Of a DNA stretch of 8,521 bases, positions 740 to 1,470 are shown piece by piece. The position numbers and the translations under genes were made by a program. This stretch comes from a virus. Taxonomy: Duplodnaviria > Heunggongvirae > Uroviricota > Caudoviricetes. Positions within the stretch are counted from its first letter, which is position 1, and each line of letters starts with the position of its first letter. The notes beneath the pieces were generated by a model. It ran no database searches, was not told the origin of the DNA, and saw nothing but the letters and a program-made list of their open reading frames with translations. The DNA lies in the IMG/VR virus record IMGVR_UViG_2617270966_000007; one strand, 5' to 3'.

Positions 740-764
740 AAAAAACAAAACCCGCCGAAGCGGG
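740..764 (-). terminator. Rho-independent terminator downstream of hok
   Basis: On the minus strand: CCCGC-TTCG-GCGGG (5-bp GC stem, UUCG tetraloop; plus 751-764) followed directly by TTTTGTTTTTT (plus 750-740), about 70 nt after the hok stop codon. Confidence 0.7.
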
Positions 765-834
765 TTAAGTGCGGGTGCGTTGAGGATGCCTGACACATCA
801 GCGGTGGCGAGGGATTTCTCCCCCGCCGGGTCTC

Positions 835-990
835 TTACTCCTCAGGTTCGTAAGCTGTGAAGACAGCGACCTCCGTCTGGCCGGTTCGGATTCGTACCTC
901 GCAGAGGTCTTTCCTCGTTACCAGTGCCGTCACCATGACGGTTAAACAGATGACGATCAGGGCGATTAGCATCGCCTTTTGCTGCTTCAT
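835..990 (-). CDS. hok: Hok/Gef-family membrane toxin (type I toxin-antitoxin toxin), 51 aa, HokD/RelF-like
   Basis: Translation MKQQKAMLIALIVICLTVMVTALVTRKDLCEVRIRTGQTEVAVFTAYEPEE has the Hok signature (single transmembrane helix then LTRKDLCEVRIRTGQTEVAVF) and closely matches HokD as recalled. SD AAGGAG lies about 9 nt upstream of the ATG at 990-988. Confidence 0.9.
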   Translation of the reverse strand: MKQQKAMLIALIVICLTVMVTALVTRKDLCEVRIRTGQTEVAVFTAYEPEE

Positions 991-1047
991 AGCCTGCTTC
1001 TCCTTGCCTTTCGGCACGTAAGAGGCTAACCTACGTGTGTAGAGCAT
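835..1047 (-). CDS. Mok-like in-frame upstream extension of hok (70 codons)
   Basis: ORF-track frame begins MLYTRRLASYVPKGKEKQA and continues in frame into Hok. Chromosomal mok reading frames (for example MokC) are N-terminally extended, in-frame versions of hok. Whether this one is translated is unknown. Confidence 0.4.
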   Translation of the reverse strand: MLYTRRLASYVPKGKEKQAMKQQKAMLIALIVICLTVMVTALVTRKDLCEVRIRTGQTEVAVFTAYEPEE

Positions 1048-1470
1048 AGATATGGCCTCAGATTAATGTTAAGCGTCTTGCAGGACGCGTAATGTTAACT
1101 GGGGCTTTTCTCTATCTGCCTTTGGTGTTCATGCCTGAGACAGATAGCCTCAAGCACCCGCAGCCATTCTACTTAACTCCCGTCACCTCGCCAATATGAA
1201 ATCAATCAGAAAGGCGATCCATAAGAACAACAGCAAGGCAATAAATTGCCATTACAGCAGCAATAGCCAGCGCACATTTGAGAACCAGCACCACAACCTC
1301 CTGTATTGGACGTACACCAGTCCTGATAAATATGAGGCTGTCTCGTCAGTGATTCAATACAACTATTGGGTATAGTTTCTGTGATTTTGTTCTGTAGAAA
1401 TGGAACACAACAACCAGTCACCACCAGCACTTCTTTAAATACGCCAAGTCCGACGCAAGCTAACCTTCTA

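Follow-up and report, generated by a model that had tools for sequence, protein, structure and literature searches.

Toxins of the Hok/Gef family are about 50 amino acids long; a transmembrane helix at the N-terminus is followed by a conserved tail in the periplasm. In the model drawn from the hok/sok system of plasmid R1, the full-length hok mRNA is closed, stable and untranslated until slow 3' processing removes the fbi element; tac then refolds onto ucb and the Shine-Dalgarno (SD) sequence of mok onto dcb, the antisense RNA Sok binds the mok start, RNase III cleaves the duplex, and decay of Sok leads to translation of Mok and Hok (PMC9841398, from which the definitions of ucb and dcb were also taken). 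A prophage-borne system of this kind, hokW/mokW/sokW, is annotated in phage 933W, and hokW-sokW of the related prophage Sp5 (VT2-Sakai) has been characterised experimentally (Takada 2021, PMC8621323). HokW was toxic and SokW rescued the cells, partly in an RNase III- and Hfq-dependent manner; upon RecA-dependent induction of Sp5, SokW was lost and HokW was made before holin and endolysin. Deletion of the locus halved the phage yield, and phage release was about twofold higher with hokW-sokW (PMC8621323). Here, a stretch of 8,521 nucleotides (nt) from the virus record IMGVR_UViG_2617270966_000007 of IMG/VR (the window) was analysed. Judged from its sequence, the region 739-1194 on the minus strand is very probably a complete stand-alone type I toxin-antitoxin cassette (hok/mok/sok, hokD/hokW lineage), carried as a moron by a lambdoid prophage in its early-right (nin-like) region.

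The Rfam model RF01794 matched 985-1159 on the minus strand with 114.7 bits (gathering score 59, E = 3e-26). The match spans model positions 1-157 of 157 and ends on the hok AUG, so that the model describes the leader of the hok-sense strand in spite of its name, 'sok'. The predicted Hok protein matched the Pfam family PF01848 (HOK_GEF) with 82.6 bits (cut-off 22) over model positions 1-42 of 42, and the PHROG family 251, 'MokW-like host killing', with E = 1.8e-32. Every element of the R1 model could be recognised in the window cassette, and none of them appears disturbed. In the K-12-type relBE-hokD (relBEF) arrangement, hok lies directly 3' of relE, shares its transcript and has no leader, mok or sok of its own; in the window a full leader is present, relB and relE are absent, and the genes next upstream encode a HAD hydrolase and a NUDIX hydrolase. 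A previous inspection of the letters only (the sequence-only reading) had proposed a stand-alone hok/mok locus in a prophage without relBE, with an in-frame Mok extension, a good hok SD and a terminator, and all of this was borne out. That reading had missed that the locus type was already named (hokW/mokW/sokW of 933W) and tested in Sp5. The locus is of a known kind, in its commonest form, and belongs as an ordinary member to a family that has been studied very well. The predicted features of the cassette are as follows.

1194-1166, minus strand: hok promoter from a promoter scan, with -35 TTGGCG (1194-1189), a 17-nt spacer and -10 TAGAAT (1171-1166), classed from its sequence as a weak sigma-70 type
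G1159, minus strand: presumed hok transcription start
1159 to about 741, minus strand: predicted full-length hok mRNA of about 419 nt, its 5' end at position 1 of RF01794 and its 3' end at the intrinsic terminator
1159-1148, minus strand: tac, GGGUGCUUGAGG, at the 5' end of the mRNA, pairing with fbi in the minimum-energy fold
1147-1112, minus strand: 5' hairpin of the hok leader, from the Rfam consensus structure and folds
1107-1101, minus strand: ucb (anti-SD), AAGCCCC, from the Rfam structure, its partner being tac (open form) or the mok SD (closed form)
1100-1060, minus strand: extended leader hairpin, from folds, whose complement is the Sok terminator hairpin
1059-1056, minus strand: mok SD, GAGG, 8 nt upstream of the mok ATG
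1053-1039, minus strand: target of the Sok 5' tail, spanning the mok start codon and complementary to the tail
1047-835, minus strand: mok, 70 codons in frame with hok, from the list of open reading frames (ORFs)
1026-1022, minus strand: dcb, GCCUC, from an Rfam helix, its open-form partner being the mok SD region GAGGC (1059-1055)
1005-1000, minus strand: hok SD, AAGGAG, preceding the hok ATG
990-835, minus strand: hok coding sequence, 51 amino acids plus stop, from the ORF list, starting at an internal ATG (990) within the mok frame
827-806, minus strand: stem-loop of the 3' untranslated region (UTR), GGCGGGGGAGAAAUCCCUCGCC, from folds; by analogy with R1 likely the 3' end hairpin of the processed (truncated) mRNA
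785-773, minus strand: fbi, CCUCAACGCACCC, pairing with tac in the minimum-energy fold, by which the full-length mRNA would be locked
766-739, minus strand: hok intrinsic terminator from a terminator scan, AACCCGC-TTCG-GCGGGTT plus a T run (stem 766-749, then TTGTTTTTTC)
1004-1032, plus strand: Sok promoter, read from the sequence, with -35 TTGCCT (1004-1009), a 17-nt spacer and -10 TAACCT (1027-1032)
1039 to about 1109 (3' end 1109-1115), plus strand: Sok RNA, predicted to be about 71-77 nt, mapped from the sokW (933W) and sokC (K-12) annotations

Some further matches in this region were set aside. The scan returned a second promoter match on the minus strand (TTAACA-18-TATGCT, 1072-1043), which lies inside the leader hairpin and was disregarded. 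A match to isrK, a small RNA of Salmonella Gifsy-1, at 745-826 on the minus strand spans the hok 3' stem-loop, fbi and the terminator. With 27.2 bits it stayed below the gathering score of 50, and since only two generic hairpins, the 3' UTR stem-loop and the terminator, are shared, it is probably due to chance. Other sub-threshold Rfam matches (snoRNA, CRISPR repeat, rsmX and SRP models) were regarded as noise.

The region 763-1179 is 93.1% identical to the 933W locus, in which all three genes are annotated. Both possess a 213-nt in-frame mok, whose layout and length correspond to those of mokW, a 51-residue Hok, an antisense RNA of 71 nt (predicted in the window) and the extended leader/Sok hairpin. 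The two Hok proteins differ at 5 of 51 residues, namely I19M and the C-terminus, which reads TAYEPEE in the window and VDYESEK in HokW. The Sok 5' tail/target also differs (GTAGAGCATAGATAT in the window, GTTCAGCATGGATTG in sokW), and 933W lacks the hairpin terminator found in the window. The setting is different as well: in the 61.7-kb record of 933W, hokW is found near 58.5 kb and falls outside the interval from the replication genes to Q, whereas the window copy has the replication genes on one side and the Q antiterminator gene on the other. The Met residue at position 19 of the window Hok (codon 934-936, minus strand), in the transmembrane helix, replaces an Ile and was unique among 64 distinct aligned sequences; the exact Met19 protein is on record from 194 contigs. 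The TACG motif at the hok Tyr47 codon (849-852, minus strand) appears to retain the context for A-to-I editing by TadA, which has been reported to recode this Tyr to Cys in K-12 hokC, hokD and hokE (PMC5630033).

The order of elements in R1 hok/sok (parB) is the same as in the window, although the R1 locus is borne by a plasmid and not by a prophage, and R1 Hok is only 44% identical to HokW, a close relative of the window Hok (PMC8621323). Conserved blocks shared with R1-type hok comprise the tac 5' end GG(G/C)(U/G)GCUUGAGGCU, ucb AGCCCC, the mok SD GAGGC, dcb AGCCUCUUAC and the hok SD CAAGGAGAAG. The same blocks were found in the same order in an alignment with R1-type plasmid hok, K-12 hokC and K-12 hokB. 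In this alignment, of the kind that the sequence-only reading had proposed, the predicted Sok 5' end, tac and ucb could be placed. In K-12 hokC (gef)/mokC/sokC, mok is in frame as in the window, and the identity to the window is 88% over a 59-nt stretch of the leader and 84% in the coding region; the hokC copy adjoins IS186 and belongs to no prophage. At the tip of the hairpin that separates ucb from the mok SD, the window and 933W share an extension of 18 nt relative to R1-type hok and hokC; relative to hokB the window hairpin is longer by 20 nt. The R1-type leader lacks this 18-nt apex of the Sok hairpin, and its first hairpin is longer. The 18-nt extension at the hairpin tip is the short palindrome that the earlier inspection had picked out.

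K-12 hokD (relF), the third gene of the relB-relE-hokD operon in the Qin prophage, encodes the window Hok except for I19M. Its coding region and 3' UTR, fbi and terminator included, are 98% identical to the window, and both copies are placed upstream of a DUF968 (YdfU-like) gene and a Q antiterminator gene. The homology begins only 14 nt before the hok ATG, in K-12 the 3' end of relE replacing the promoter, tac, ucb, the mok start, the Sok target and the Sok promoter; K-12 hokD is thus a truncated, Sok-less form, which has kept fbi and lacks its tac partner. Because fbi has no role without tac, and since the complete form is far commoner than that of K-12, it is plausible, as the earlier reading had suggested in calling the locus ancestral, that the complete form is the original one and the relB-relE-hokD arrangement derived from it. 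Among 80 IMG/VR loci whose Hok is 98-100% identical to that of the window, a full leader was present in 72, an allele with a short Sok hairpin in 5, the K-12 relE type in 2, and unrelated sequence in place of the leader in one (L086). At least 80% of the cassette was present in 4018 of 5426 complete E. coli genomes (about three quarters), and genomes with any cassette match carried it at a median of 2 places and at up to 10. An enrichment of hok in prophages has also been reported (bioRxiv 10.1101/2025.08.07.668861).

The RefSeq annotation already names the toxin gene hokD. In such loci the RefSeq pipeline PGAP gives the hokD coding sequence alone and omits mok and the Sok RNA (e.g. locus L001, NZ_CP117013.1, 6835-6990), so that intact and K-12-type truncated loci share one gene name. 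With the family well studied, the toxin gene annotated and a 93%-identical homologue characterised experimentally, the importance of the present locus is small. The practical yield is an exact map of the regulatory elements for the window allele and the explanation of the repeats seen by the earlier reading as ordinary hok-leader and Sok hairpins; the K-12 relBE-hokD locus, taken as a derived, truncated form, is a useful reminder.

The earlier reading had expected Sok on the plus strand at around 1040-1120, and the annotations of its relatives agree with this. Both sokW, whose 71 nt correspond to window 1039-1109, and sokC place the 5' end at 1039, with a 3' end at about 1109-1115. The predicted RNA folds into a single-stranded 5' tail of 15 nt, a long hairpin (1054-1106) and a U run, with -28.7 kcal/mol and z = -4.6. 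By sequence comparison, its promoter, start, terminator hairpin and U run match those of the annotated sokW and sokC. The candidate promoter aligns with the R1-type TTGCGC/TATCCT region, and its -10 element is identical to that of sokW. Read on the hok strand this element is TAGGTTA, exactly the element changed to CCGGCTC in the promoter-less sokW mutant (Takada 2021, primer YO-421); that mutation unleashed HokW toxicity (PMC8621323).

The repeats at 1064-1099 and 1112-1147 noted in the earlier reading were recovered by a repeat finder. Direct repeats TAATGTTAA at 1064-1072 and 1090-1098 flank GCGTC-TTGCAG-GACGC. In the predicted fold the repeats form the arms of the hairpin that terminates Sok, on either side of the palindrome as its apex; such direct repeats can pair as arms through the self-complementary TTAA and T-G wobbles. 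CTATCTG (1112-1118) and CAGATAG (1141-1147) lie within the inverted repeat I1 and form the 5' hairpin of the hok leader.

The folding of the mRNA was then considered together with its conservation. In the in silico fold of the 419-nt mRNA (-170.8 kcal/mol, z = -7.5), the first 12 nt paired with 785-773 in a tac/fbi helix of 12 base pairs with one bulge, and part of the mok SD region paired with ucb (GCC), as in the closed form. When the first 60 nt were folded alone, the tac/ucb stem of the Rfam model was obtained, and both open pairings (tac/ucb and mok SD/dcb) are present in the Rfam structure. Conservation was assessed over 64 distinct related sequences that are 92-100% identical (mean column identity 97%). 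All 12 tac/fbi pairs were kept, with 100% of cells paired and only G-C to G-U changes; the 7 tac/ucb pairs were invariant, and the 5 pairs of mok SD/dcb were kept in every sequence, with one G-U change. In the 5' hairpin one pair showed a compensatory AU to GC change in 4 sequences, and the 9 pairs of the 3' stem-loop (827-806) were kept at 99.3%, with G-U/A-U/G-C variation. The mok ATG (1047) was invariant and the Hok protein almost so, whereas the Mok N-terminus varied freely. Among 69 related loci, conservation starts sharply at the hok -10 box, the -35 region and the sequence further upstream being mosaic.

Following the model established for R1 and hokW, the cassette would act in several steps. 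The weak sigma-70 promoter would drive the hok mRNA of about 419 nt, and a convergent promoter within the hok/mok 5' region would drive the Sok RNA of about 71 nt. The full-length mRNA would be stable, untranslated and not bound by Sok. Slow 3' trimming would then remove fbi, upon which tac would refold onto ucb and the mok SD would pair with dcb, making the mRNA both translatable and open to Sok. As long as Sok is made, it would bind the mRNA and block the translation of mok and of the coupled hok, and RNase III would cut the duplex. Sok is expected to be short-lived, so that once its synthesis stops, Mok and Hok would be translated and Hok would enter the inner membrane and kill or lyse the cell.

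As to the biological role, the one described for hokW-sokW in Sp5, acting at induction and phage release, appears by analogy to be the best supported for the prophage copy. Placed in the interval from the replication genes to the Q antiterminator gene, the cassette has its hok gene running in the direction of early-right transcription. From this position we infer, as a plausible trigger, that read-through on induction collides with the convergent Sok promoter. The cassette might instead serve mainly to stabilise the prophage by post-segregational killing as in R1, where loss of the prophage would remove Sok and leave the stable hok mRNA to kill the cell. All elements behind the stable-mRNA/unstable-antisense behaviour of R1 are present, and such systems are well established as a means of maintaining mobile elements; yet Sp5 lysogens without hokW-sokW grew normally and the phenotype appeared on induction, not on prophage loss (PMC8621323), which makes this role unlikely as the principal one. 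We hold it for quite improbable that the cassette, though intact in sequence, is a physiologically silent passenger, selfish or neutral, with no natural production of Hok and no effect on prophage or host. The several matching places per cassette-bearing genome (median 2, up to 10) would fit selfish spread, but across the 64 distinct loci, whose flanks are mosaic, the regulatory pairings and Hok are very strongly conserved, and the 93%-identical hokW-sokW is toxic, is neutralised by SokW and alters lysis timing and phage yield (PMC8621323). Very unlikely is a host defence by abortive infection, in which transcription in the host would be stopped by an infecting lytic phage and the ensuing decay of Sok would let Hok kill the cell before the phage cycle is complete. 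Defence genes are common in prophages, but a survey of Hok saw no enrichment of hok beside defence systems (both bioRxiv 10.1101/2025.08.07.668861), and the 42% reduction in T4 plating and about 85% in plaque size by R1 hok/sok, as cited in PMC8621323, is a weak effect that needed a high-copy plasmid.

Several points weigh against reading the window cassette as a working switch with the role of its Sp5 counterpart. Transcription, processing and toxicity of this copy are predicted from its homologues, and some chromosomal hok loci have, according to a citation in bioRxiv 10.1101/2025.08.07.668861, been reported as incapable of post-segregational killing. The unique I19M change and the prophage position, unlike that of 933W hokW, mean that the Sp5 phenotype may not transfer. 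The Sok promoter stayed below the threshold of the generic promoter scan because its weak -10 element, TAACCT, fits the consensus at 3 of 6 positions; it was placed by homology instead. When the mRNA was truncated at its 3' end, the minimum-energy fold had another 5' hairpin in place of the tac/ucb stem. Covariation was weak, with only 3-5 pairs changing on both sides, as the relatives are too similar. Since the structure compared was taken from the window's own sequence, the percentage paired is inflated, and the pairing counts show conservation and are not independent proof. Weight was placed on conservation and homology, not on covariation.

What is mildly new in this locus is an allelic hot spot at the Sok seed, a second one at the 3' stem-loop and an unannotated small ORF adjoining the cassette. 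Per 15-nt window the 64 distinct loci had a median of 4 haplotypes, but 13 at the Sok target/5' tail (1039-1053). The hypervariable zone extends over 1030-1053 on both strands (loci L005-L088) and includes, besides the 5' tail of Sok, the start of mok with its codons 2-5, in cassettes that otherwise hardly differ. The second hot spot, 814-832 on the minus strand, falls on the stem-loop of the 3' UTR that closely precedes fbi, and reaches up to 17 haplotypes per 15-nt window with the pairing kept. In five loci (L027, L040, L068, L078 and L088) a short hairpin unrelated to the extended one (1060-1100) stands in its place, CCCACCCGA...CTATAAATCGAAG, with no change in the elements tac, ucb, mok SD and hok. 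It is conceivable, though we put it forward only tentatively, that the cassette is one allele of a multi-allelic specificity system, with the adjoining small ORF of 29 codons possibly a further unrecognised partner. If so, the Sok RNAs of co-resident prophages would not neutralise one another, and each prophage would hold a private killing or lysis timer. Such privacy could matter in genomes with the cassette at more than one place, as given above by the median of 2 and maximum of 10. Among the extra IMG/VR loci retrieved for co-resident Sok alleles, only three genomes with two contigs each were available.

The earlier reading had also described about 500 base pairs of non-coding, structured sequence upstream of hok. 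This held for the leader (1159-991) and the promoter (1194-1166), the hok locus taking up only about 215 nt of the upstream sequence; most of the stretch lies outside the locus, which that reading had overlooked. The region 1200-1554 was rejected as part of the hok locus: it is common to only about 15 of the 80 related loci and, being absent from most of them, was taken as a separate variable block. Its part 1360-1200 was found in 1702 of the 5426 E. coli genomes (about a third) and was never annotated there in RefSeq. The block holds the small hydrophobic ORF, with the following elements.

1357-1329, minus strand: putative promoter of the ORF, TTGAAT (1357-1352) and CATATT (1334-1329), both conserved, separated by a 17-nt spacer that diverges
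1302-1297, minus strand: SD of the ORF, AGGAGG, 5 nt upstream of its start
1291-1202, minus strand: hydrophobic ORF of 29 codons, MLVLKCALAIAAVMAIYCLAVVLMDRLSD, with a GTG start at 1291 and its stop at 1204-1202

The ORF is open in 10 further distinct block sequences, in which the changes are synonymous and conservative. Its product is listed in databases only as 'hypothetical' or 'membrane protein', and it had no family match in Pfam, NCBIfam or PHROG. Two other ORFs overlapping it, one of 59 amino acids on the opposite strand (1196-1375, plus) and a Cys-rich one of 74 amino acids in another frame of the same strand (1206-1430, minus), gave no meaningful Pfam or NCBIfam E-value and were judged spurious.

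Near the start of the upstream block common to phage Tritos and several IMG/VR loci, a perfect hairpin of 9 base pairs, GTCCGCTTT-TCGCTC-AAAGCGGAC, lies at 1470-1493 on the minus strand and is followed by no T run. Further upstream, the genes of the HAD-family hydrolase (1555-2199) and the NUDIX hydrolase (2223-2861), both on the minus strand, form cargo between the replication module (DUF977) and hok. This arrangement was found over at least 80% of the window in only two E. coli genomes, and most relatives carry other genes at this place, for instance QueH.

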